Positions 4,254 to 46,347 of a DNA stretch of 64,000 bases are shown in pieces. Position 1 is the stretch's first letter. The number at the start of each line of letters is the position of its first letter. Under the pieces are notes generated by a model. That model saw only the letters and a list, made by a program, of their open reading frames with translations. It did no database searches and was not told the origin of the DNA. The translations under genes were made by a program, and so were the position numbers. Source of the DNA: Acutalibacteraceae bacterium (GTDB lineage Bacteria; Bacteroidota; Bacteroidia; Bacteroidales; Bacteroidaceae); assembly GCA_963652075.1 (NCBI GenBank), contig CAVJRQ010000089.1, positions 337 through 64,336 of the forward strand, read 5' to 3'.

Positions 4254-5097
4254 ATTTAGGGTCGTTTGCCAGCCGGATGCCGTTATCTTCCAGCAGGATG
4301 AGCCGATTCCTGTACAACTCGCCAATGGCTTTCTTGAAGGTCTTCTTGCTGACCTGAAACTCCGCATAGATTTCTTCCGCATCACTTTTGTCGTGGAAAG
4401 GGATGAATCCCTGATGCGACTTTATGTAGTGCAGCAAAGACTCGGCAAAGTCGTCCACCTTGCGGGGGCCGCCCCGTTGCAGTTCCAAGTCAATCTTTCC
4501 GTCGGGACGCACCTGCTTGACGAAGGCGGAGAGGTGATTGCCCATCTTTATGGGCTGGAATATCTCGGACTGATAGATTAGGCCACTGTAGCGGTTGTCC
4601 ACTATCACCTTATAGCCCAAATCCGTGCGTTGCCACACCAATGCATCCACCACGCTGCCTTCGCGGTAATGAGGCTGCTCCTTGGAGAGGAAGTGCTCTA
4701 CCTTTGCGGAGGCCATGATGCGATAGCTTTCTTCATCGATGTAGACATAAACGAGATAGCGGTGACCCACCTCCATCTTCATCTTCTGTTCACGGAAAGG
4801 AACGAAGAGGTCTTTCATCAGACCCCAGTTGAGGAACGCGCCAAACTGGTTGGTCCACGCCACTTCGAGCGACGCGAACTCACCCACCTGCACGTAGGGG
4901 GTAAGCGTTGTGGCCACAAGCCGTTCCTCGTTGTCGAGGTAGATGAAGACATTCAGCATATCTCCCGGTTTGCAGTTCTCGGGTACATACCGGGCAGGGA
5001 GCAAAATCTCGCCATCGTCGTCGCCATCGAGGTAGACACCGAAGTCCACGGTCTTCACTACCTTTAGCTGGTTATATTTTCCAAGTTTTATGTGCAT
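4252..5097 (-). CDS. S1-like RNA-binding protein, CvfB/YitL family
   Basis: 281 aa. Repeated S1-like segments (VVKTVDFGVYLDG, VAWTNQFGAFLNWG) and a C-terminal winged-helix-like tail. Confidence 0.75.
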   Translation of the reverse strand: MHIKLGKYNQLKVVKTVDFGVYLDGDDDGEILLPARYVPENCKPGDMLNVFIYLDNEERLVATTLTPYVQVGEFASLEVAWTNQFGAFLNWGLMKDLFVPFREQKMKMEVGHRYLVYVYIDEESYRIMASAKVEHFLSKEQPHYREGSVVDALVWQRTDLGYKVIVDNRYSGLIYQSEIFQPIKMGNHLSAFVKQVRPDGKIDLELQRGGPRKVDDFAESLLHYIKSHQGFIPFHDKSDAEEIYAEFQVSKKTFKKAIGELYRNRLILLEDNGIRLANDPK

Positions 5098-8148: not shown

Positions 8149-9207
8149 ATGAAAGTAGCAATTGTTGGAGCGAGCGGAGCTGTGGGACAAGAGTTCCTTC
8201 GCGTGCTCGATGAACGGAATTTCCCGATTGATGAGTTAGTATTGTTTGGTTCGCAACGCAGTGCCGGACGAAAATACACATTCCGTGGCAAAGAAATCGA
8301 GGTCAAACTTTTGCAGCATAACGATGACTTCAAAGGAGTGGACATCGCTTTCACATCCGCAGGAGCAGGCACATCGAAGGAGTTCGCCGAGGACATCACC
8401 CGTTACGGAGCCGTGATGATTGACAACTCAAGCGCTTTCCGCATGGACAATGACGTGCCTTTGGTTGTCCCCGAATGCAATGCGGAGGACGCGCTGAACC
8501 GTCCGCGCGGCATCATCGCCAACCCGAACTGCACGACCATCATGATGGTCGTCGTGCTGAAGCCCATCGAGAAGCTGTCGCACATCAAGAGTATACATGT
8601 CGCCTCGTACCAAAGCGCAAGCGGTGCGGGTGCCGCAGCCATGCAGGAACTGCAGGAACAATACAAGGCTCTGGCCGAGTCGAAAGACCCGGTTGTCAGC
8701 AAGTTCGCCTACCAACTGGCATACAACGTGATTCCGCAGATTGACGTCTTCCAGGACAACGGTTACACCAAAGAGGAGATGAAGATGTTCAACGAGACCA
8801 AAAAGATTATGCATACCGATGCCAACTGTTCGGCCACATGCGTCCGTATCTCTTCACTCCGTGCGCACAGCGAGGCCGTGTGGGTAGAGACAGAACGACC
8901 TATCTCCGTTGAAGAGGCGCAGAAGGCCATAGCCGCCGCTGAGGGAGTGATTCTGATTGACAACCCGGCACTGGTAGGAGCCAAGGCCAACCCGGACGCG
9001 ACAAAGGAGACCATGGAGGGGTTGCCTTATCCGATGCCTCTCTACACGGCCGGTAAGGATTGCGTGTACGTGGGACGCGTACGGAAAGACCTCGCCAACG
9101 ACCACGGACTGGCGTTCTGGCTCTCGGGCGACCAAATCAAGAAAGGTGCCGCACTGAACGCCGTGCAGATAGCGGAATACCTTATTAAAGTAGGGAACGT
9201 GAAATAA
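8149..9207 (+). CDS. asd: Aspartate-semialdehyde dehydrogenase
   Basis: [19 protein letters not shown](P) fold, active-site region IANPNCTTI, 352 aa. Confidence 0.92.
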
Positions 9208-15558: not shown

Positions 15559-18500
15559 TTACTCCTCCGTCAACCACACGGGACCAATGATACCCGATGA
15601 AACCAATTCATCGTCGGGCTTGGCAATGACAGGAAAGGCATAGGTGATTCGCTGTGCCTCGGGCAAAGCGGCATCGCCTATCATTCGGTTTGTCAGCGCA
15701 TTGGCGACCTCCAAGCGTAGCGTATTGTCGCCCTCTTGCAAGAATCCGGTCAGTTCCATGCGCCAAGGCGAACACCATACCGTACCTACTTGTTTCCCGT
15801 TCAACGTAATGCGGGCGACAGACTCCAAGCGGCTGAATTGCAAGAACTGACGCTTTGTAGGCGACAGTGAATCCACCCGGAATGTATGTTGGTACACCGC
15901 CGTGCCCGAATAATAGCGGATACGGGTATCAGTGGATTGCGACCAGTCGGTCAGTTCCGTCACCTTCACGAGACCCGGACCTCCCAACTTGGAGGAAAAG
16001 TCTATCGTCCATTCACCAGAGAGTTCCTTACGGGTCTCCTCCGTACCGAAAGCGAGCAAAGGAAGAGCCTCATCACGCGCGTCCCCTTGGTGCAGCACGA
16101 TGACGCAGGACTCGCGGGGTTGCAGACGGAGCGGCACGGCTATTCGGCCGTCCGCTGAACGGGATGAGAGGATGCGGTAACGTTTTCCCGTCACGCCATT
16201 CCACAGTTCGGCATCCTGTTCGCCGCTACGGAACAGGAAGGTATGACTAAGAGGCGTATCCTCGTGATTGTCGATGAAATAGATGTCACCGTCCGCCAAC
16301 CTGCGATGCGCAAAGAAGCATTTCCTTCCGGCAGGCAACGCCACATCGGGCAGCATGCCTTCCGCCTCACAGGCTCCCTGAAGTGACATTCCCCAATATA
16401 CGACACCTTTTCCGTATTCATTCGCAACCGAAGTCTCAGAACTGCTTCCCCACAACGCATCCGCCAACTCACGATACGCTTCCATTTGGCTCTTGTCCTG
16501 GAGCGTACCCGAGTAGCGAGGACGAGGACCATACACGGACAAACCTCCTTTTACCAAGAGGGCAATCTTGCGCAGTGCCTCTAAGGTCATCTCCCCGTTA
16601 GTGGGCAGCACCATCATGCGATAGACAAGTCCATCGGGCAAGGTCAGTTTGCCGTTCTTCATCGCCATACGGGACAGCAACGCATCCGTAGTGAACGCAT
16701 CAAAATCATATCCGGCGGGTATCAACGGCAAGCGATGAGTCAATATCTTCACCGGGGCGTTCTCTCCAAGGTAGACACAGAAGTCCACCACCGGTTTGCC
16801 TTGACGCATGAGGCAGGAGCAACGGGCCTGATAGTCCCAGAAGCCACGACTGTAAGGCCAAAAGGTATTGTTACGGTTGAGGCAATAGTGACGGCCGCCT
16901 CCGGTGTTCCCCGGCATGCGGTCTGTCCAGGGCTGCGCCGCGGAAGCACAAACGACAAACTCATTCAGTCCGTAGCAGTAGGCATAGTCCGCCAGCTGTT
17001 TGATGTAGGCCAGTGAATGGCTGAACTTGGCATCCGTAAAGGCTTCGCCCGAAGCGATGGATTTCCCGTAGAGATGAGCTGCCGAAGAACTTTCCTTGAT
17101 GTCATAATTGCCATCCGGATGCATAGCCCAGAATTCCCCTTGCGGTTTCGTCACCCGTCCCTTTGCCTGCAACTGGTCTGCCACCATGCAGAGGGCATTG
17201 CCCGTGGCCTCTGCCGTGAAGGTTAGGCCTCGGCTGCGGCACAGACTGTCGAACACGGCATAGTGATTGTCCGCCACCAAGTCCGCAATGGTGCGGCGCA
17301 CGTCATAGAGTACGGCATCGGACTGTTCCGCGGTGTTGACCACATAGCCGGTCATCACCGGAAGCCACGTCAAGAGGTCATACCCACGCAAACGGCTGAA
17401 GCTCCGTTCAAACCCGGGTGTCCAGTTTTGCGAGCCCGCCTCGTTGCTGTCCATTGCCACGCCGTGCAACACACCTCCGTGCGCTGCGATGGAATCGGCT
17501 ATCACGGCTGCATAATGGTTCCACTGAACCCGGGCAGCAACGGGTGAGAGTTTGTCACACTCAAGTCCAATCAGGTTGGCACGGCCATGTTTGGTGCGCG
17601 TGCCGATGGGCAGATGAACAAAGCGCATCACCAACCACTCCCCCTCCGGAGCTTGCCAACGGAGTCTGTCGTGAACGGAATCCACATGGGCGGACAGGTC
17701 AACGACTTGTTCAGCAGCGACCAATTCATTCTTACCATATTGGGGTGTACGGTCTTTCTCTATATACTCCGCATAAAGTCCGGCTTTCTCCTCCCATTGG
17801 TCTACACAGGCACGGGCGGACAACACGATGTTGCCTATCTGTAGGTCACGCCGCTGCTCGTCCGACTCCAGCCAATCATGGAAATGCAGCCGATAATAGC
17901 GACCCCGTGTCGTGGGGAAAGCCAAGGTCTTCCGTTTCCAGCTGGAGTGTGCCTTATAGAGGGGTTTCAGTTGACACACCGTACGGAAATGCACACCGTC
18001 GTCAGAGACTTCCAGCTCACCCAAATCGGGCAAGACCCGATAACCGGTACCCACGAAAGTATCTTGGGGAGGAGCCGGCACATTGGTAGCGCTGGTGGTA
18101 GCCTTTCCACGGGGACGGGTACTGTAGGAGATGCTCCGTGCCGTAAACGCCTCCCCGAAGTCGAGCGTGATAGTGATGGGTCCGTCATCCTTCTGTTGGG
18201 GTATGGTAGGCAGTTTTCCGTCATTCATGAGACAGAGCCCTGCGTCAAAGCCTTTCACATTGGACGTGACAACGGGTTGCAACCTTCGGCTGTCCGCCCC
18301 GGTCTCTTTCGTATAAGGGATAGCCACAAGAGCCACATCCCTGTAATGGTCCGACGCGACGCACGGCAAAGGGATGTCCAGCGATTCGCCTCCGCTGACC
18401 AACGTGTCCACACAGGCAAGCCGTTGCATGCCCAGTTCCGGTGTAATCCATGGGCCTCCCGCCACATATCCGTTAGAGATATGCACTTCGAAAGTCAGTC

Positions 18501-18855
18501 CCAGCCGTTTGGCTTCCTGCGAGGCGAAGATTAGTGACCGCCACCATTCGGGCGAGAACGCGTCGCAAGCCTTTTCGCCCTTTCCGTGCACCTGGTCGTA
18601 GTACACCACTCCGCCAACGCCCGCATTCTTGAATGCTTCCAGGTCGGCCGTGATGCCTTCGTCCGTGGACTCCGTCTCCCCATGAAACCACCACACTTTG
18701 GTGCGTGCCGAGTCTTGCGGATTGGAGAATCCCGCCCAAGCCTTCCGCACATCGTCCGTTGTAACACCCGTTGGACGGCAACCCGTCGTGATGACGAGCA
18801 ACGCCAGTCCCGCAACAACCCAATAGAATTGTCCTTTTGTCATATCCTTTATCAT
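15559..18855 (-). CDS. Large secreted glycoside hydrolase, GH106-like / jelly-roll glycosylhydrolase family (family assignment tentative)
   Basis: About 1100 aa. Signal/lipobox-like LLVITTGC. The C-terminal block LNGKQVGTVWCSPWRMELTGFL..GDNTLRLEVANALTNRMIGD is typical of these large Bacteroidales hydrolases. The ATG at 18855 (or 18843) is preferred over the TTG at 18906. Confidence 0.55.
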   Translation of the reverse strand: MIKDMTKGQFYWVVAGLALLVITTGCRPTGVTTDDVRKAWAGFSNPQDSARTKVWWFHGETESTDEGITADLEAFKNAGVGGVVYYDQVHGKGEKACDAFSPEWWRSLIFASQEAKRLGLTFEVHISNGYVAGGPWITPELGMQRLACVDTLVSGGESLDIPLPCVASDHYRDVALVAIPYTKETGADSRRLQPVVTSNVKGFDAGLCLMNDGKLPTIPQQKDDGPITITLDFGEAFTARSISYSTRPRGKATTSATNVPAPPQDTFVGTGYRVLPDLGELEVSDDGVHFRTVCQLKPLYKAHSSWKRKTLAFPTTRGRYYRLHFHDWLESDEQRRDLQIGNIVLSARACVDQWEEKAGLYAEYIEKDRTPQYGKNELVAAEQVVDLSAHVDSVHDRLRWQAPEGEWLVMRFVHLPIGTRTKHGRANLIGLECDKLSPVAARVQWNHYAAVIADSIAAHGGVLHGVAMDSNEAGSQNWTPGFERSFSRLRGYDLLTWLPVMTGYVVNTAEQSDAVLYDVRRTIADLVADNHYAVFDSLCRSRGLTFTAEATGNALCMVADQLQAKGRVTKPQGEFWAMHPDGNYDIKESSSAAHLYGKSIASGEAFTDAKFSHSLAYIKQLADYAYCYGLNEFVVCASAAQPWTDRMPGNTGGGRHYCLNRNNTFWPYSRGFWDYQARCSCLMRQGKPVVDFCVYLGENAPVKILTHRLPLIPAGYDFDAFTTDALLSRMAMKNGKLTLPDGLVYRMMVLPTNGEMTLEALRKIALLVKGGLSVYGPRPRYSGTLQDKSQMEAYRELADALWGSSSETSVANEYGKGVVYWGMSLQGACEAEGMLPDVALPAGRKCFFAHRRLADGDIYFIDNHEDTPLSHTFLFRSGEQDAELWNGVTGKRYRILSSRSADGRIAVPLRLQPRESCVIVLHQGDARDEALPLLAFGTEETRKELSGEWTIDFSSKLGGPGLVKVTELTDWSQSTDTRIRYYSGTAVYQHTFRVDSLSPTKRQFLQFSRLESVARITLNGKQVGTVWCSPWRMELTGFLQEGDNTLRLEVANALTNRMIGDAALPEAQRITYAFPVIAKPDDELVSSGIIGPVWLTEE

Positions 18856-18977
18856 ATCCTTTGAATTTCGACTGTATCTTTTCGACTGATTATTTACCCC
18901 GTCCAATACTGGAGGAACTTCCGTTCATGAAAGCAAGCACTCCCGCATCGGTGACATCCGAGGCTATCACTTTTCCG

Positions 18978-18985
18978 CAAAGGTA
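18978..18985 (-). promoter_or_regulatory. -7 box TACCTTTG for the GH106-like gene
   Basis: Reverse complement of caaaggta. It implies a ~120-nt leader. Confidence 0.4.
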
Positions 18986-19024
18986 GCAAATTCTTTTTAC
19001 CGCAGCAATTCGCTCAACAATCCA

Positions 19025-19116
19025 CAGCCAAACGTTGCAACGAAATACAGCCAAACGCTGCAACGAAACACAGCCAAACGTTGCAACAAAACACGGCCAA
19101 ACGTTGCAAAATTGCT
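19025..19116. repeat. Tandem array A1: 4 x 23-bp units, core palindrome CGTTGCAACG
   Basis: Units start at 19025/19048/19071/19094: cagccaaacgttgcaacgaaata, cagccaaacgctgcaacgaaaca, cagccaaacgttgcaacaaaaca, cggccaaacgttgcaaaattgct. Confidence 0.95.
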
Positions 19117-19147
19117 TAAAATATTTGGCGTTTCTAATTCATCATTG

Positions 19148-19155
19148 TACTTTTG
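19148..19155 (+). promoter_or_regulatory. -7 box TACTTTTG for the AAA+ ATPase gene, overlapping a half repeat TTGCAACGAAAT
   Basis: TAnnTTTG match 25 nt upstream of ATG 19180. TTGCAACGAAAT (19153-19164) repeats the array core. Confidence 0.5.
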
Positions 19156-19179
19156 CAACGAAATCAACCGGGAATAGGC

Positions 19180-20454
19180 ATGAAAGATTATAAAAAAAGA
19201 ATAGCAGACAAACTATTGGAATATAGGCTTGAAGAAGTAGGCGCAGTACTCATAGAAGGGCCAAAGTGGTGCGGAAAGACGACCTCTGCCGAGCAACAAG
19301 CCAAGAGTGTGCTATATATGGCAGACCCGGACAACCAAAAGAACTATCTGGAAATGGCTGAACTTGGGATAAAAATGCTCCTCAAAGGAGATAATCCCCG
19401 ATTGATAGACGAGTGGCAGATAATCCCCCAGATTTGGGATGCCATCAGATTTGAAGTTGACCACCGAGGCAAAGAAGGGCTATTTATCCTAACCGGTTCG
19501 GCCGTTCCGGCATCGACAGAAAGAATCCACCACACAGGTACCGGACGATTCGCATGGATTACGATGCGCCCTATGTCGCTATGGGAATCCGGAGAATCCA
19601 CTGGCGAAGTAAGCATCAGCCGACTTTTCAAAGGGGATGCAGATATTGAGGGCTATAACAAACTCAATATTGAAGATATCGCTTTCCTTGTATGTCGCGG
19701 TGGATGGCCCAGTGCCACGACCAAAAGCAAACGTGCCGCCTTACGGCAAGCATACGACTACCATGACGCTGTCGTAAAAACCGACATTTCAAGAGTAGAT
19801 GAAGTAACAAGAAGCAGCGAGCGTACCAAACTACTGTTACGTTCGTACGCTCGGGCACAAGGCGGTCAAGTGAGCATCGAAGCCATTAGACAAGACATGA
19901 TAAACAATGACGATGAGAGTCTGGCCGAAAGAACCGTTATGAGTTACATCGGTGCTCTCAAGAAGATTTTCGTCATCGAAGACATGCCTGCATGGAATCC
20001 CAACCTACGCAGTAAAACCGCCATCCGCACAGCCGAGACCCGATATTTTGTAGACCCGTCCATTGCAGTAGCCGCTTTAGGCTTAGGCCCAGACGACCTC
20101 ATCAACGACTTGGAAACTTTCGGGTTGCTCTTTGAAACCCTCTGTGTCCGTGACCTTCGCGTATACGCCGATGCGATAGACGGCAATGTCTATCATTACC
20201 GCGACAAGAACGGTTTGGAATGCGATGCCGTGCTACATCTTCGCAACGGCTCTTATGGTCTCGTCGAAATCAAATTGGGCGGCGCACCAGCCATCGAGAA
20301 AGGGGCTTCTACCCTAACCAGTCTCGCCTCAAAGATAGATACCACCAAGATGAAGGCTCCCGCTTTCATGATGGTACTCACCGCCATTGGCAACTACGCC
20401 TATCGGCGCAAAGACGGAGTATACGTTGTACCTGTCGGTTGTTTGAAGGACTGA
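19180..20454 (+). CDS. COG1373-type AAA+ ATPase with C-terminal DUF4143 / PD-(D/E)xK-like domain
   Basis: Walker A GPKWCGKTT, Walker B RLIDEWQ, C-terminal GLECDAVLHLRNGSYGLVEIKLG (D ... ExK pattern). The start is taken at MKDYKK. Confidence 0.8.
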   Translation: MKDYKKRIADKLLEYRLEEVGAVLIEGPKWCGKTTSAEQQAKSVLYMADPDNQKNYLEMAELGIKMLLKGDNPRLIDEWQIIPQIWDAIRFEVDHRGKEGLFILTGSAVPASTERIHHTGTGRFAWITMRPMSLWESGESTGEVSISRLFKGDADIEGYNKLNIEDIAFLVCRGGWPSATTKSKRAALRQAYDYHDAVVKTDISRVDEVTRSSERTKLLLRSYARAQGGQVSIEAIRQDMINNDDESLAERTVMSYIGALKKIFVIEDMPAWNPNLRSKTAIRTAETRYFVDPSIAVAALGLGPDDLINDLETFGLLFETLCVRDLRVYADAIDGNVYHYRDKNGLECDAVLHLRNGSYGLVEIKLGGAPAIEKGASTLTSLASKIDTTKMKAPAFMMVLTAIGNYAYRRKDGVYVVPVGCLKD

Positions 20455-20482
20455 TATCCCCCATTGGAAGTTCGTTCATAAA
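20381..20482 (+). repeat. Left copy of ~100-bp direct repeat (3' end of the ATPase gene plus ~30 nt downstream)
   Basis: The 74 nt at 20381-20454 differ at only 2 positions from 23330-23403. Homology (cattggaa.t..gttc..aaa) decays after the stop codon. Confidence 0.9.
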
Positions 20483-20522
20483 TGACAAGCAATAGGTATG
20501 CACCATTTCGCAATATTATTCG

Positions 20523-20530
20523 TATTTTTG
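20523..20530 (+). promoter_or_regulatory. -7 box TATTTTTG for sulfatase-anSME
   Basis: TAnnTTTG match 24 nt upstream of ATG 20554. Confidence 0.5.
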
Positions 20531-20553
20531 CAAGCAATCAACAAAAATACAAT

Positions 20554-21993
20554 ATGGACAAGAAACTACTCTACTGTACAGGCTTATTGGCCGTTGCCTT
20601 ACCAGGTCAGGCTGCCACAGAAGCCCATGCTGCCGACAAGCAAAAGGCGACCCCCGACCGCCCAAACATCATATTTATCCTTGCCGACGACCTCGGACTG
20701 GGCGACCTGTCATGCTATGGCAGCCAGTGTATCAAGACACCAAACATCGACAAGCTGGCCGAAACGGGTACCCGGTTCACGAATAGCTATGCAGGCTCCG
20801 GCATCAGTTCGCCATCACGCTGCTCACTCATCACCGGCAAGAACACAGGTAATACCACCATCCGTGACAATACCTGCACCGCCGGAGGACTGACGGGGTA
20901 CAAGATTAATCCCAATGGCGACACCACCATCGTGAGAAGAGCCAACATTCTTCCAACAGATACCACCATCGCCACCGTCCTGAAGACAGCAGGCTACAAG
21001 ACCTGTCTTGTCAACAAGTGGCACTTGGACGGTTACGACCCTAAGGCATCCCCCATCTACAGAGGCTTCGACGAGTTCCACGGTTGGTTAATCAGTACCG
21101 TAGAGTCAAACTCACCTTATTATTACCCATACAACCGATTCGAGAACGACAAACTCATCCACATCGAGGCGAATGAGCACGACAAGCACGTGCGTCATAA
21201 CACCGACATATCCACCGATGATGCCATCGGCTTCATCAAGCGCAACCGGAACAATCCTTTCTTCCTCTATCTCGCCTTTGATGCACCCCACGAGCCATAC
21301 ATTATCGACAACACCTCTTGGTACGACGATGAGTCGTGGGACATGAACGACAAGCGATACGCCTCGCTCGTTACCCATATGGACGCAGCCATCGGAAGAC
21401 TTCTGAAAGTATTGGATGAGTTGAAACTCCGTGAAAATACCCTAATCATCTTCGCTTCCGACAATGGCGCCGCCGTGCAAGCTCCCCTGAAACTCTTCAA
21501 CTGCAACGCAGGCTTCCGTGGTCGCAAAGCACAACTCTACGAGGGCGGAATCCGTGTACCTTTCATCGTCAACCAACCCAACAAGGTACCCGTGCAGAGC
21601 TTGGACAACATCATCTACTTCCCCGACGTGATGCCTACCCTCGCAGCCCTCACCGGTTCAGAAGGGGCATTGCCACAGGGATATAACGGCATCAACATAC
21701 TGCCACTCTTCTATGGCAAGCAGAACTACCAAGACGGCAAGCCGGTAAATACCGACAACCGGCTCTTGTACTGGGAATTTCCAGGCAAACAGCGTGCGGC
21801 ACGCAAGGGCGACTGGAAGTGCGTAACCATCCAGAAGGATGCACCCCTCGAACTATACAACTTGAAGGAAGACCCTACCGAAAGCCACAATCTCGCCAAA
21901 GAGTATCCCGAGATGGTGGAACAATTCGACAAGGAGATGAGAGCGGCACGCAAACCGTCGCCCAACTGGCCTCTCCCCGATGACAACAAGTAA
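20554..21993 (+). CDS. Sulfatase (arylsulfatase family), Ser-type formylglycine motif
   Basis: Signal peptide, PNIIFILADDLGLGD, and the motif SSPSRCSLITGK (S-x-P-x-R, i.e. Ser rather than Cys at the FGly position). Confidence 0.85.
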   Translation: MDKKLLYCTGLLAVALPGQAATEAHAADKQKATPDRPNIIFILADDLGLGDLSCYGSQCIKTPNIDKLAETGTRFTNSYAGSGISSPSRCSLITGKNTGNTTIRDNTCTAGGLTGYKINPNGDTTIVRRANILPTDTTIATVLKTAGYKTCLVNKWHLDGYDPKASPIYRGFDEFHGWLISTVESNSPYYYPYNRFENDKLIHIEANEHDKHVRHNTDISTDDAIGFIKRNRNNPFFLYLAFDAPHEPYIIDNTSWYDDESWDMNDKRYASLVTHMDAAIGRLLKVLDELKLRENTLIIFASDNGAAVQAPLKLFNCNAGFRGRKAQLYEGGIRVPFIVNQPNKVPVQSLDNIIYFPDVMPTLAALTGSEGALPQGYNGINILPLFYGKQNYQDGKPVNTDNRLLYWEFPGKQRAARKGDWKCVTIQKDAPLELYNLKEDPTESHNLAKEYPEMVEQFDKEMRAARKPSPNWPLPDDNK

Positions 21994-22002
21994 AGAAGGT
22001 AT

Positions 22003-23202
22003 ATGGCCGACCAAGACTTCGCGCGCCCCTTCTCCAGGCCACTCTACGTGATGCTGAAACCAACAGGAGCCAGCTGTAACCTTGCCTGCAAGTACTGCTA
22101 CTATCTGGAAAAAGCGGATTTATACGCCAAGGGCTTCATGGACGAAAAGCTGTTGGAGCATTTCACCAAGGAGTATATCGAGATGCAAACCGTGCCGCAA
22201 GTACTCTTCACCTGGCATGGAGGCGAGCCGCTTCTGCTGCCCGTCTCCTATTACGAGAAAGCACTGGAGTTTCAACGGAAATATGGCAGGGGAAGAGAGA
22301 TAGACAATGTCATCCAAACCAACGGTACACTGCTCACCGACGAGTGGTGCGAGTTTCTGAAGAAGAACCGTTTTCTTGTGGGCATCTCCATAGATGGCCC
22401 ACAAGAATACCATGACCGTTATCGCCAAAACAAACAAGGCTTGCCTTCATGGCAAAAGGTGATGGATGGAATCCACCTGCTCAACAAGCACGGCGTGGAA
22501 TGGAACGGAATGGCCACGGTAAATGCCTACAACGTAAAACACCCCCTGGAGTTCTATCACTTCTTCAAGGAGATTGGCTGTAAATACATCCAGTTTGCCC
22601 CCATCGTGGAACGGAAATATCAGACACATCTCTCCCACTTGTTGGATGCACACCACTCCTTACTGACAGAGGAGAGCATCACTCCCGAGGACTGGGGCAA
22701 CTTTCTCTGCACCATCTTCGACGAATGGGTACGCCACGACGTGGGCGAATATTTCGTGGAAATCTTCGACAGCATCCTATCCAACTGGGTGGGAGAAGCA
22801 CCAGGCATCTGCATTTTCGGAAAAGAATGCGCCAATGTCGGCGTGATGGAGAAGAATGGCGACGTATACTCATGCGACCATTTCGTTTTCCCCGAGTTCA
22901 AGTTAGGGAACATCAAAGAAGACTCATTGGTCTCCTTGTTCTATGGCAAAAAACAACAAAAATTCGCACAGTTGAAGTCCCGCAGTTTACCCCAACAATG
23001 TCGAGAGTGCAACTTTCTTTTCGCCTGTCACGGCGAATGTCCCAAGAACCGTTTTGCCAATGACAGATACGGAAATCCAGGGCTCAACTACCTCTGCGAA
23101 GGCTATCGTCACTTCTTTGAGCATGTAGCTCCCTATATGGAATGGATGAAGAATGAATATCTGGCAGGCGGTGCGCCTGCCAACATCATGAAAGTTCTAT
23201 AA
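22003..23202 (+). CDS. Anaerobic sulfatase-maturating enzyme (radical SAM, SPASM)
   Basis: CNLACKYCY radical-SAM cluster motif near the N-terminus, C-terminal Cys-rich SPASM region (CRECNFLFACHGECPKNR), 399 aa, directly downstream of the sulfatase. Confidence 0.88.
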   Translation: MADQDFARPFSRPLYVMLKPTGASCNLACKYCYYLEKADLYAKGFMDEKLLEHFTKEYIEMQTVPQVLFTWHGGEPLLLPVSYYEKALEFQRKYGRGREIDNVIQTNGTLLTDEWCEFLKKNRFLVGISIDGPQEYHDRYRQNKQGLPSWQKVMDGIHLLNKHGVEWNGMATVNAYNVKHPLEFYHFFKEIGCKYIQFAPIVERKYQTHLSHLLDAHHSLLTEESITPEDWGNFLCTIFDEWVRHDVGEYFVEIFDSILSNWVGEAPGICIFGKECANVGVMEKNGDVYSCDHFVFPEFKLGNIKEDSLVSLFYGKKQQKFAQLKSRSLPQQCRECNFLFACHGECPKNRFANDRYGNPGLNYLCEGYRHFFEHVAPYMEWMKNEYLAGGAPANIMKVL

Positions 23203-23265
23203 TCCTTTGTAACTTCACGGAACAAAGATTACACGGGCAAAGGCAAAGAGTGGCATTCCGAAACA

Positions 23266-23329
23266 CAGCCAAACGTTGCAACAAAACCCGTCCAAACGCT
23301 GCAACGAAATACGACCAAACGTTGCAACG
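23266..23329. repeat. Tandem array A2: 3 units of the same 23-bp repeat as A1
   Basis: Units start at 23266/23289/23312: cagccaaacgttgcaacaaaacc, cgtccaaacgctgcaacgaaata, cgaccaaacgttgcaacg. The last unit runs straight into the gene remnant. Confidence 0.92.
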
Positions 23330-23403
23330 CCGCCATTGGCAACTACGCCTATCGGCGCAAGGACGGAGTATACGTTGTACCTGTCGGTTGTTTGAAGAAC
23401 TGA
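23330..23403 (+). pseudogene. Remnant of the COG1373 ATPase gene (last 23 codons + stop), right copy of the direct repeat
   Basis: Encodes AIGNYAYRRKDGVYVVPVGCLKN*, versus AIGNYAYRRKDGVYVVPVGCLKD* at the end of 19180-20454. There is no start codon and no upstream coding sequence. Confidence 0.9.
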
Positions 23404-23470
23404 AATTCTTCATTGGAACTCTGTTCGGAAACCGTTGATACAGTGTAAGAAAGCCCTTGCATTGATTGAA

Positions 23471-23580
23471 TGACAATTGTCAGCAAGGTGAATGACAATT
23501 GTCAGAAACGTTTACGACAATTGTCAGCAACATGGATGACAACTGTCAGCAACCTTTACGACAGTTGTCAAAACAGCTTG
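23471..23580. repeat. Tandem array B: 5 x 22-bp units, core palindrome TGACAATTGTCA
   Basis: Cores at 23471, 23493, 23515, 23537, 23559 (tgacaattgtca x2, cgacaattgtca, tgacaactgtca, cgacagttgtca). Unit 5 contains the nrdG stop codon. Confidence 0.95.
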
Positions 23581-24020
23581 ATGGCCGTAAGCTTACCATC
23601 ATGTATCTGGTAGAGTCGCTGATTGGTGGTAGGGGATTTGAGTCCTCCCAGACGTTGGATGTAAGGACCGAGTTTGAGGTAATCAAGCCATGCGGCATCG
23701 TAACCATCCGGAAGAACGGAACGTCCGGAATACCATGCGGTCTTGAGGTCAGAGAACCGCTCACGAAGGAGAAGAGAGAGGCGACGCACCTCGTCCGGCT
23801 CACCGTCACCTCCCATAAAACAGACGCAAGTGACAGCAGGGACATAGGTACGGACAAGGTCTGTCAAGAAACCGTCCGTGACAGCCTCTCCCTTGTCCTC
23901 CCACAGCCAAGGGCTATGGCAGCCCTGGCAATGGATGGGACAGTTGGAGATGTTGAGCGCCAACGTCACTTCGTCCGGGATTTCCTGACAGACGATGTCG
24001 TAACTATAACATTTCAGCAT
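23568..24020 (-). CDS. nrdG: Anaerobic ribonucleoside-triphosphate reductase activating protein
   Basis: 150 aa. Radical-SAM cluster CPIHCQGCHSP. Overlaps the nrdD stop by 7 nt. Confidence 0.88.
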   Translation of the reverse strand: MLKCYSYDIVCQEIPDEVTLALNISNCPIHCQGCHSPWLWEDKGEAVTDGFLTDLVRTYVPAVTCVCFMGGDGEPDEVRRLSLLLRERFSDLKTAWYSGRSVLPDGYDAAWLDYLKLGPYIQRLGGLKSPTTNQRLYQIHDGKLTAIKLF

Positions 24021-46055: not shown

Positions 46056-46083
46056 CATTCGTCCACTGACAGTCGAACTTATA

Positions 46084-46193
46084 CGTAAGTACTTTCATGA
46101 GCCAACGTAAGTACTTACGTGAGCCATCGTAAGTACTTTCATCGGGCAACGTAAGTACTTACCCCGAGCAACGTAAGTACTTTCATCGGACTA
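46084..46193. repeat. Tandem array C: 5 x 22-bp units, core palindrome (A)CGTAAGTACTTACG(T)
   Basis: Units start at 46084/46106/46128/46150/46172. Units 1, 3 and 5 read cgtaagtactttcat..., units 2 and 4 read cgtaagtacttac.... Unit 2 forms the perfect 16-mer acgtaagtacttacgt (46105-46120). Confidence 0.95.
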
Positions 46194-46256: not shown

Positions 46257-46347
46257 TGGCGGAAAGAGTGGGATTCAAACCCACGGAACGGACAAGCCGT
46301 TCACCGGATTTCGAGTCCGGCCCATTCGGTCACTCTGGCATCTTTCC
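46257..46347 (-). tRNA. tRNA-Ser (anticodon CGA), CCA encoded
   Basis: Hand-folded from the minus-strand read: acceptor GGAAAGA/TCTTTCC, anticodon stem CCGGA/TCCGG with loop CTCGAAA, long variable arm GAACGG-CTTG-TCCGTTC, T arm GTGGG-TTTGAAT-CCCAC, 3' GCCA. 91 nt. Confidence 0.9.

Follow-up and report, generated by a model that had tools for sequence, protein, structure and literature searches.

Plasmid iterons served by an autoregulated Rep protein (as in pPS10, R6K, RK2 and F) consist of three to seven direct repeats with a period of 22-23 base pairs (bp), and each repeat binds a single winged-helix protomer, the product of the gene next to the array. The same site also controls the promoter of that gene, and site and protein co-evolve. 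Here, we analyse an array of similar architecture in a 64,000-nucleotide (nt) stretch of a Bacteroidales contig (CAVJRQ010000089.1; the whole stretch is hereafter called the window), in which four direct 23-bp units (array A) stand upstream of a gene for a DUF4143 protein. The two arrangements differ in the protein, which here is a fusion of an AAA_14 ATPase and a PD-(D/E)XK nuclease instead of a WH1-WH2 Rep, and in the setting, the loci described below being chromosomal, multi-copy and non-replicative, with neither DnaA boxes nor an unwinding element, and with an AT-rich stretch that is a promoter.

Other described systems share part of this layout. MalT and similar STAND/LAL regulators, which act on direct MalT boxes, are likewise oligomerising ATPases with a DNA-binding module that occupies several direct, asymmetric sites next to a promoter. 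However, MalT activates other operons and carries a LuxR-type helix-turn-helix (HTH) and a sensor domain, whereas here the proposed target is the promoter of the gene itself, and a nuclease is the additional domain (the MalT structure 8bob is the second Foldseek match of the DUF4143 protein, a weak one with a template modelling (TM) score of 0.27). In archaea, origin recognition boxes (ORB) next to orc1/cdc6 are also repeated sites beside the gene of a winged-helix AAA+ protein, but they are typically inverted around an unwinding region and mark an origin, while the present units are strictly direct, contiguous and placed upstream of a promoter. Type III toxin-antitoxin systems combine a short tandem array with a following nuclease-type gene, often in a defence context; their ToxI repeats, however, are 36 nt long and belong to a transcript whose promoter is upstream of them, with a terminator after them, whereas here the promoter lies downstream of the array. 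Finally, the BrickBuilt element of Porphyromonas gingivalis (PMC4596501) is, like ours, an intergenic Bacteroidales repeat with spacerless tandem units of 23 nt, partly conserved and partly variable, and with a polymorphic copy number, but it has a leader and a tail with IS5-like terminal inverted repeats, reaches 23 copies and has no listed DUF4143 neighbour.

The DUF4143 family is listed among the PD-(D/E)XK groups whose function is unknown (PMC3424549) and, under the name PDC-S01, is reported to be the fourth commonest candidate defence system in prokaryotes, with ~29,500 bacterial and 10,000 archaeal instances in one survey, most PDCs still awaiting validation of their anti-phage activity (PMC12988326). 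The kind of element reported here is familiar (direct-repeat operators and iterons), but what appears to be new is its link to the DUF4143 family, at a period that stays the same from phylum to phylum: upstream repeats are undescribed in the literature searched (outside subscription journals) on DUF4143, COG1373 and PDC-S01, including the preprint that introduced the candidate defence systems. Judging from sequence comparison, we think it quite likely that the array is bound by the product of the gene that it precedes, and probable, if with less assurance, that the units are cognate iteron-like operators through which this product regulates its own gene.

Direct repeats upstream of DUF4143 genes

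Array A (Table 1) is a head-to-tail series of CAGCCAAACGTTGCAACGAAATA and its variants, with units starting at 19025, 19048, 19071 and 19094, exactly where the original prediction (made from the DNA letters) had placed them; Tandem Repeats Finder (TRF) reports it at 19015-19109, with a period of 23, 4.1 copies, 87% matches and a score of 141. The 18-mer CCAAACGTTGCAACGAAA, allowing up to three mismatches, has six matches in the window against 0.05 expected from shuffles, and all six fall in array A or in a second array of the same family (array B, discussed below). In the register common to the family, GCCAA starts at 19027, 19050, 19073 and 19096, the core reads gCCAAACGyTGCAA and the spacer cGAAAyACA. 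The end of the array is 70 nt away from the ATG of the DUF4143 gene, and the half copy that had been noticed over the -7 box, TTGCAACGAAAT, is indeed there, 3 nt out of register with array A by our own count. Each unit had also been credited with the palindrome CGTTGCAACG, exact or with one mismatch, which applies to unit 1 (exact) and to units 2 and 3 (one mismatch each), but not to unit 4 (CGTTGCAAAA), which has two mismatches. Across the family, a palindrome of at least 6 bp is present in 5 of 59 unit consensuses only, so that the palindrome of the window, formerly taken as the core feature of the unit, is incidental. A CRISPR array (clustered regularly interspaced short palindromic repeats) was considered and rejected, the units being contiguous and their sole variable part being ~10 nt inside each 23-nt unit.

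Bacteroidetes promoters follow a -33/-7 consensus, known from promoter work on Bacteroides fragilis, and one match to it separates array A from the gene. The -33 TTTG is exactly 20 bp away from the -7 box TACTTTTG, and the combined motif TTTG-N20-TAnnTTTG occurs once on the plus strand of 18800-19250 and four times in the whole window. The TTTG itself is contained in TTTGGCGTTT, which repeats part of the unit's GCCAAA in inverted orientation. The 38 nt between array A and the -7 box are as AT-rich as had been noted (74% A+T, against 47% for the whole window), and the AT-rich promoter stretch is kept in the orthologous loci L002 and L004. Based on these motifs, the stretch is best described as the gene's ordinary -33/-7 promoter, with array A directly upstream of it, and not as the unwinding element of an origin layout, with which it had been compared; similarly, of the remark that the layout resembles no standard Bacteroidales promoter, what stands is the array upstream, the promoter itself being standard. 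Two other promoter interpretations were rejected: a sigma-54 promoter on the opposite strand (TGGC...TTGCA), whose GG-to-GC distance is 14 instead of 12 by our own count, and units acting as reiterated -33/-7 promoters, given that TTTG is in the core of some lineages only and the spacing does not fit.

On the minus strand, a further -7 box, TACCTTTG, lies at 18978-18985, ~40 nt to the left of array A, and probably serves the divergent GH106 rhamnosidase gene. With two promoters in one 270-nt intergenic region, occupancy of array A could affect both.

Arrays of this type recur upstream of DUF4143 genes in many phyla, as expected from the suggestion that the repeats are a cis-site for this protein family. 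A profile search based on a five-sequence alignment yielded 80 metagenomic relatives (61-89% identical), 73 of which have enough upstream sequence; repeating the search with the same profile returned the same close relatives and no new diversity. TRF found a repeat of period 22, 23, 46 or 69 upstream of 59 of the 73 genes, and periodicity in the 220 nt upstream (autocorrelation at lags 12-40, compared with 100 shuffles) was significant for 67 of them, the best lag being 23 in 65 cases and 22 in two. In control windows from the same loci, significance was reached in 19 out of 330, with scattered lags (lag 23 in a single window), and the density of TRF arrays was 2.79 per kb in the upstream windows versus 0.058 per kb elsewhere. 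The same test was applied to a distant set of 23 homologues from ~9 phyla, composed of plasmid homologues (20-63% identical) and of a second clade found with a Prosthecochloris protein as query: 16 were significant (14 of 17 diverse members and two of six more distant ones), always at lag 22-23. The positive phyla include Bacteroidota, Bacillota-like bacteria, Actinomycetota, Chlorobiota, Desulfobacterota, Krumholzibacteria, Alphaproteobacteria and Gammaproteobacteria (among the taxa, Bacteroides, Collinsella, Prosthecochloris, Lentilactobacillus, Rhizobium, Agrobacterium, Marinobacter, Spartinivicinus, Mycobacterium, Desulfobulbaceae and Krumholzibacteria), and the core differs by clade: the Chlorobi-like clade has TGGCGAAACGGTAGCG, for instance, and several proteobacteria have T(G/A)GACG. 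The class can be defined by three or more direct units with a period of 22-23 that share the orientation of a DUF4143 gene and lie within the ~100 nt before it, the last GCCAA starting about 30 + n x 22-23 nt ahead of the -7 box, and array A belongs to it.

Searching by DNA instead of protein, a scan of 185,579 species genomes for two window cores 23 bp apart gave three loci (L001-L003), two of which are directly upstream of DUF4143 genes. L002 has a four-unit array and promoter as in the window and encodes a 91% identical protein between other neighbours (GH97 and DUF3810), and in L003, a gammaproteobacterial locus, a PDC-S01 gene (1.1e-89) is directly preceded by five to six units of 23 bp. 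Two more close relatives, P0022 (86% identical, between OmpA-family and extracytoplasmic function (ECF) sigma-factor genes, with another unit, CAGCCAAATTGGGTAACGATTCT) and P0002 (90% identical), add a further context and unit variant each. In total, 86-91% identical proteins with arrays are found in four unrelated contexts, and the homology between them begins exactly at the first unit. The comparison of unit number across strains that had been suggested is also informative: among ten samples with an identical protein, the P0022 array has 4, 5 or 6 units, with the cores intact.

The units of Bacteroidales and Firmicutes can be written in a common register, GCCAA-nnnnnnn-AA-yr-AAAA-nnn, always in the orientation of the gene. 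Within an array, positions 3-6 and 10-13 differ in 0-4% of the copies and positions 15-16 and 20-23 in 15-20%, while the differences between arrays are at unit positions 6-12. The unit is therefore a conserved, array-specific core of 13 bp followed by a drifting 10-bp spacer, a combination which looks like a protein-binding iteron and unlike the outcome of slippage alone. The position relative to the promoter is also constrained: the distance from the start of the last GCCAA to the TA of the -7 box is 29-31, 52-54 or 74 nt, and its phase modulo 23 is 5-8 in 36 of 39 loci (R = 0.84), the window, with 52 nt, being in the commonest spacing class of the family. In the ~30-nt class the variable core of the last unit lies over the -33 position, and the -33 element is covered, in many loci, by the final good unit or by a degenerate one in phase with it. 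Across the family, unit sequence varies by lineage, and period, orientation and promoter register are constant.

Several individual loci deserve a separate description. The L002 contig (CAVHEN010000004.1) is labelled Oscillospiraceae but has Bacteroidetes-type promoters and SusD-like and GH97 genes; it is probably mis-binned. The array of L003 (707-850, minus strand) has the window's core CCAAACGTTGCAA and precedes a protein that is 27% identical over the 235 available residues, a coincidence for which either convergence or transfer of the recognition module would account. L001 (5970-6085, Prevotella) is a solo window-type array of five units between convergent pfkB-kinase and metallophosphoesterase genes, with no DUF4143 gene or remnant within the locus. 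In L061 (65% identical), a leader, GGCTGGCGTTTTT, and one type of 23-bp array are present on both flanks of the gene (2880-2960 and 4290-4384), with three units upstream and four units beginning 30 nt past the stop codon, and no second gene follows. The contig of L014 also contains a more distant AAA_14/DUF4143 paralogue (389 residues), which is preceded at 8640-8778 by two ~35-nt units, each with the inverted repeat GCACT-N7-AGTGC, and not by a 23-bp array. A Moraxella bovis plasmid homologue (L121, 22% identical) has no direct repeats; its promoter region carries instead, at ~560-697, an inverted repeat that is long and perfect, AAACCTAGTTTAATTTAAGAT/ATCTTAAATTAAACTAGGTTT. In the Chlorobi-like clade, the genes of L111 and L113 (1501-2778) are directly upstream of the type I restriction gene hsdR and beside SLFN/AlbA_2 + HATPase_c_4 genes, which fits the origin of the PDC-S01 label in genes embedded in defence systems. 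A phage origin was rejected, with 6 of 50,697 phage records matching, all of them unannotated virome contigs.

The DUF4143 protein and its covariation with the unit

The product of the gene downstream of array A is, in agreement with its earlier description as AAA+/nuclease-like, a protein with AAA_14 (PF13173, 1.6e-14) and DUF4143 (PF13635, 3.2e-31) domains according to Pfam, and the PADLOC profile of PDC-S01 (PDLC04790) covers residues 1-422 of its 424 (1.5e-63). The Walker A and B residues G27, G32, K33, T34, D77 and E78 are invariant in the alignment. An AlphaFold2 model obtained with a two-clade alignment has an overall predicted local distance difference test (pLDDT) of 78 and a predicted TM-score (pTM) of 0.80. 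It is composed of an AAA+ core (residues 1-200), a middle module and a confident PD-(D/E)XK domain. The middle module has three helices (213-226, 233-243 and 246-263) and a two-stranded wing (264-290, with strands 264-266 and 288-290 and a floppy loop), which resembles a winged helix. The nearest folds found by Foldseek are winged-helix AAA+/STAND proteins (NB-ARC, MalT, ORC, clamp loaders and Avs), in weak matches with TM up to 0.30.

For 49 protein-array pairs, we compared the distance between cores (unit positions 6-14) with the distance between proteins. In a sliding window along the protein, the best correlation was obtained at residues 241-255 (r = 0.42), and after removal of the whole-protein distance the peak was at residues 237-251 (partial r = 0.25), a value reached by none of 300 permutations (maximum 0.231). 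The more variable protein stretches 51-65 and 151-165 had correlations of ~0. The best pair of columns is residue 251, which stands just before Thr252, an invariant residue at the beginning of helix 3, and unit base 10, with a normalised mutual information of 0.84 (0.66 for the next pair). When residue 251 is Lys, bases 10 and 11 are both G in 12 of 12 cases; when it is Asp, Glu or Asn, base 10 is C in 30 of 31; and when it is Arg, base 10 is G or T in all five (G in two, T in three). The clade of the window has Arg251 (codon 19930-19932), T at base 10 and G at base 11. This rule spans several unrelated helix sequences, and its direction is chemically sensible, with basic side chains going with guanine and acidic or amide ones with cytosine. 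The substitutions that distinguish 86-91% identical proteins with different arrays do not, by themselves, give a clean determinant.

Table 1. Positions of the repeat, promoter and coding features in the window
Feature	Position	Strand	Basis or remarks
Array A, four direct 23-bp units	19025-19116	+	Tandem Repeats Finder; repeat family D1
Promoter-proximal AT-rich stretch holding the -33 TTTG (19124-19127)	19117-19147	+	
-7 box TACTTTTG of the DUF4143 gene	19148-19155	+	motif match
TTGCAACGAAAT, a half copy of the unit that lies over the -7 box and the region where transcription starts	19153-19164	+	
Gene of the 424-residue AAA_14 ATPase and DUF4143 (PD-(D/E)XK nuclease) protein; COG1373, PADLOC candidate PDC-S01	19180-20454	+	
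Codons 213-290, predicted winged-helix-like module	19816-20049	+	AlphaFold2 model
Codons 228-255 (helix 2 plus the N-terminal half of helix 3), region covarying with the array-specific core bases	19861-19944	+	
Codons 347-365, PD-(D/E)XK catalytic residues E347, D349, E363 and K365	20218-20274	+	invariant in alignments A3 and A6; pLDDT 80-94
Array B, three units, same family (D1) as array A	23259-23329	+	period 23, 3.1 copies, TRF score 93
Second DUF4143 gene, reduced to a remnant that copies 20381-20482 at 89% nucleotide identity	23330-23431	+	repeat family D3, alignment A1

A decayed second module and other repeats in the window

The DUF4143 gene is flanked by a GH106 rhamnosidase gene (opposite strand) on one side and by sulfatase and radical-SAM maturase genes on the other. 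Array B is located 4.2 kb downstream of array A and is joined directly, at its last unit, to the gene remnant, which encodes residues 402-424 (96% identical; tblastn 23332-23400), the stop codon and ~30 nt more; no -7 box was found after this array (23200-23480 searched). Array B and the remnant are a decayed second copy of the array-gene module. The sulfatase and the anaerobic sulfatase-maturating radical-SAM/SPASM enzyme (20482-23202) are exactly between the intact and the decayed modules, and look like cargo between two module copies.

Two other repeats of similar period, built on palindromic cores of a different sequence, are present in the window; like array B and the -33 TTTG, they had escaped the original prediction. 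Array C (23467-23570) comes after the DUF4143 remnant and before nrdG, a minus-strand gene that has its 3' end on this side; its 22-bp units, 4.5 in number, combine a perfect palindrome of 12 bp, TGACAATTGTCA, with a 6-nt spacer that varies. Array D (46083-46189) has 4.7 units of 22 bp (alternating, hence also 44 bp) with the core ACGTAAGTACTT(ACGT), and follows a DUF2490 outer-membrane-barrel gene, before a hairpin and a tRNA-Ser(CGA) (46257-46347, minus strand). None of the 122 loci retrieved contains the core of array C or that of array D. The flanks of L030, L041, L049, L051, L057, L061, L076 and L085 hold numerous unrelated tandem repeats with a period of 21 (also 42 and 51), and it seems that short minisatellites of ~two helical turns characterise these Bacteroidales genomes generally, beyond those linked to DUF4143.

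Proposed cognate operators and the alternatives

In the mechanism that we propose, the winged-helix module would read the 13-bp core, with the 10-bp spacer free to vary, and the AAA+ protomers would be arranged head-to-tail, one per 23-bp unit and ~two helical turns apart. Occupancy of the array, in register with the -33/-7 promoter, would then control the transcription of the gene itself, and repression would be the likely mode, since the site nearest to the promoter abuts the -33 element or lies over it. We infer the binding of the protein to the array, its cooperativity or ATP dependence and the choice between repression and activation, and the direction of regulation is a guess. Several observations speak against this proposal. 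No array was detected by the autocorrelation test in 6 of the 73 close relatives, nor in the distant members from Thermus, Emticicia, Aliarcobacter, Dinoroseobacter and Moraxella, and arrays also exist with no intact gene (array B and L001). L003 shares the core of the window at a protein identity of 27%, which simple co-divergence does not predict. Concerning the protein, the winged-helix part of the model has a pLDDT of 55-65 only, and sequence and profile searches of the PDB gave no solved homologue. Concerning the covariation, the permutation tests ignore relatedness, the mutual information between columns is confounded by phylogeny, and the top 50 column pairs are not enriched in residues 205-265 (13 versus 9.2 expected, p = 0.11). 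Finally, the promoter positions are motif matches only.

The most serious alternative, which we nevertheless regard as unlikely, is that the array is a working platform that nucleates an ATP-dependent oligomer of the ATPase-nuclease, and that this stored or licensed complex performs the function of the family, possibly an antiviral one, promoter control being a by-product. The evidence for cognate binding applies equally to such a platform. The strict 22-23-bp period across phyla suggests a constraint from an oligomer rather than from a promoter, three to six units are usual and up to nine occur, the nearest folds are oligomerising proteins, several relatives are within type I restriction-modification loci or beside SLFN/AlbA_2 genes, and the family is listed as a defence candidate (PMC12988326). 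However, the fixed register with the -7 box and the abutting or overlapping of the -33 element point to transcription, the number of units is free to vary among strains, the antiviral activity of PDC-S01 is not demonstrated (PMC12988326), and the present evidence fits plain autoregulation equally. Somewhat less probable still, and more speculative, is a two-part system in which the chromosomal array would be a docking station: an AAA+ oligomer of fixed geometry, with one protomer for every 23 bp, would assemble there and be kept inactive, until invading DNA or a loss of supercoiling, for example, releases or re-targets it and so turns the nuclease on. That the units are instead operators for a separate host-encoded regulator, with no contact by the DUF4143 protein, is improbable: defence genes are often under separate repressors, and a small HTH gene is found upstream in L018, L107 and L109, but most loci have no conserved neighbouring regulator, the contexts of close relatives are wholly different, and the sequence of the unit tracks DUF4143 residues 228-255, including the rule that relates residue 251 to base 10.

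A recombination or mobility site, with the array-promoter-gene module moving or duplicating by means of attachment-like arrays, would leave the promoter register and the helix covariation unexplained. We consider this option more doubtful than a separate regulator, even if the unrelated contexts of close relatives (with homology starting at the first unit), the presence of arrays A and B on either side of the window gene and its two cargo genes, the two-sided arrangement of L061 and the solo array of L001 are what it would lead one to expect; arrays on both sides are rare (one of 73 loci, L061, besides the window), array B followed by a remnant fits duplication and deletion rather than integration, and the module has no recombinase. 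A neutral slippage minisatellite, or a functionless repeat carried by a transposable element of the miniature inverted-repeat type (MITE) as in BrickBuilt, is very improbable. Minisatellites of 21-23 nt are indeed numerous in Bacteroidales (two more in the window and several in the related flanks, besides the 23-nt one of P. gingivalis, PMC4596501) and the number of units is polymorphic, but the link to one family across phyla with unrelated unit sequences, the fixed position and orientation, and the conserved core with a free spacer argue against neutrality, and a copy number of 4, 5 or 6 at identical protein, with cores intact, is not that of neutral slippage. The array also has no leader, tail or terminal inverted repeats of BrickBuilt type (the IS5-like terminal inverted repeat GAGACCTTTGCA, as defined in PMC4596501, was not found in 18500-24000). 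Equally hard to credit is an element acting as RNA, such as a processed antitoxin. Tandem direct repeats right before a nuclease-type gene are the layout of ToxI/ToxN, but in the Bacteroidetes loci the -33/-7 promoter between array and gene leaves the array outside the mRNA, there is no terminator between the two, no Rfam match was obtained, the folding is no better than that of shuffles (z = -1.5), DNA folding likewise yielded nothing, and the protein is AAA+/PD-(D/E)XK and not ToxN-like. Least probable of all is an iteron-type replication origin or a partition (centromere) site, which the original prediction had offered together with autoregulation; of these functions, autoregulation is the one that we retain. 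Direct repeats ~two helical turns apart, an AT-rich stretch and a winged-helix AAA+ gene do resemble plasmid iteron origins and archaeal ORB-orc1/cdc6 loci, and ORC is among the weak fold matches. The product, however, does not belong to the Rep (WH1-WH2, Rep_3-type), Orc1/Cdc6 or ParB families, the genes nearby (rhamnosidase, sulfatase and maturase) include no par gene, the AT-rich stretch is a promoter, the cumulative GC skew has no turn at 16-24 kb, and the module is found at many chromosomal sites, with several copies per genome.

A conserved companion DNA element is the first concrete handle on the DUF4143/PDC-S01 family. It predicts sequence-specific DNA binding by residues 228-255, within which residue 251 and base 10 form a candidate recognition rule that can be addressed by single mutations, and it offers a natural DNA substrate for structural work on the oligomer. 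In practical terms, heterologous assays of these genes should include, or deliberately omit, the ~150 nt upstream, and the array can be used as a simple annotation signature for the real start codon and the promoter. It also accounts for some of the 22-23-nt minisatellites that have long been known from Bacteroidales genomes. If the docking station were true, PDC-S01 would be a DNA-plus-protein system, of which the DNA half has been overlooked.

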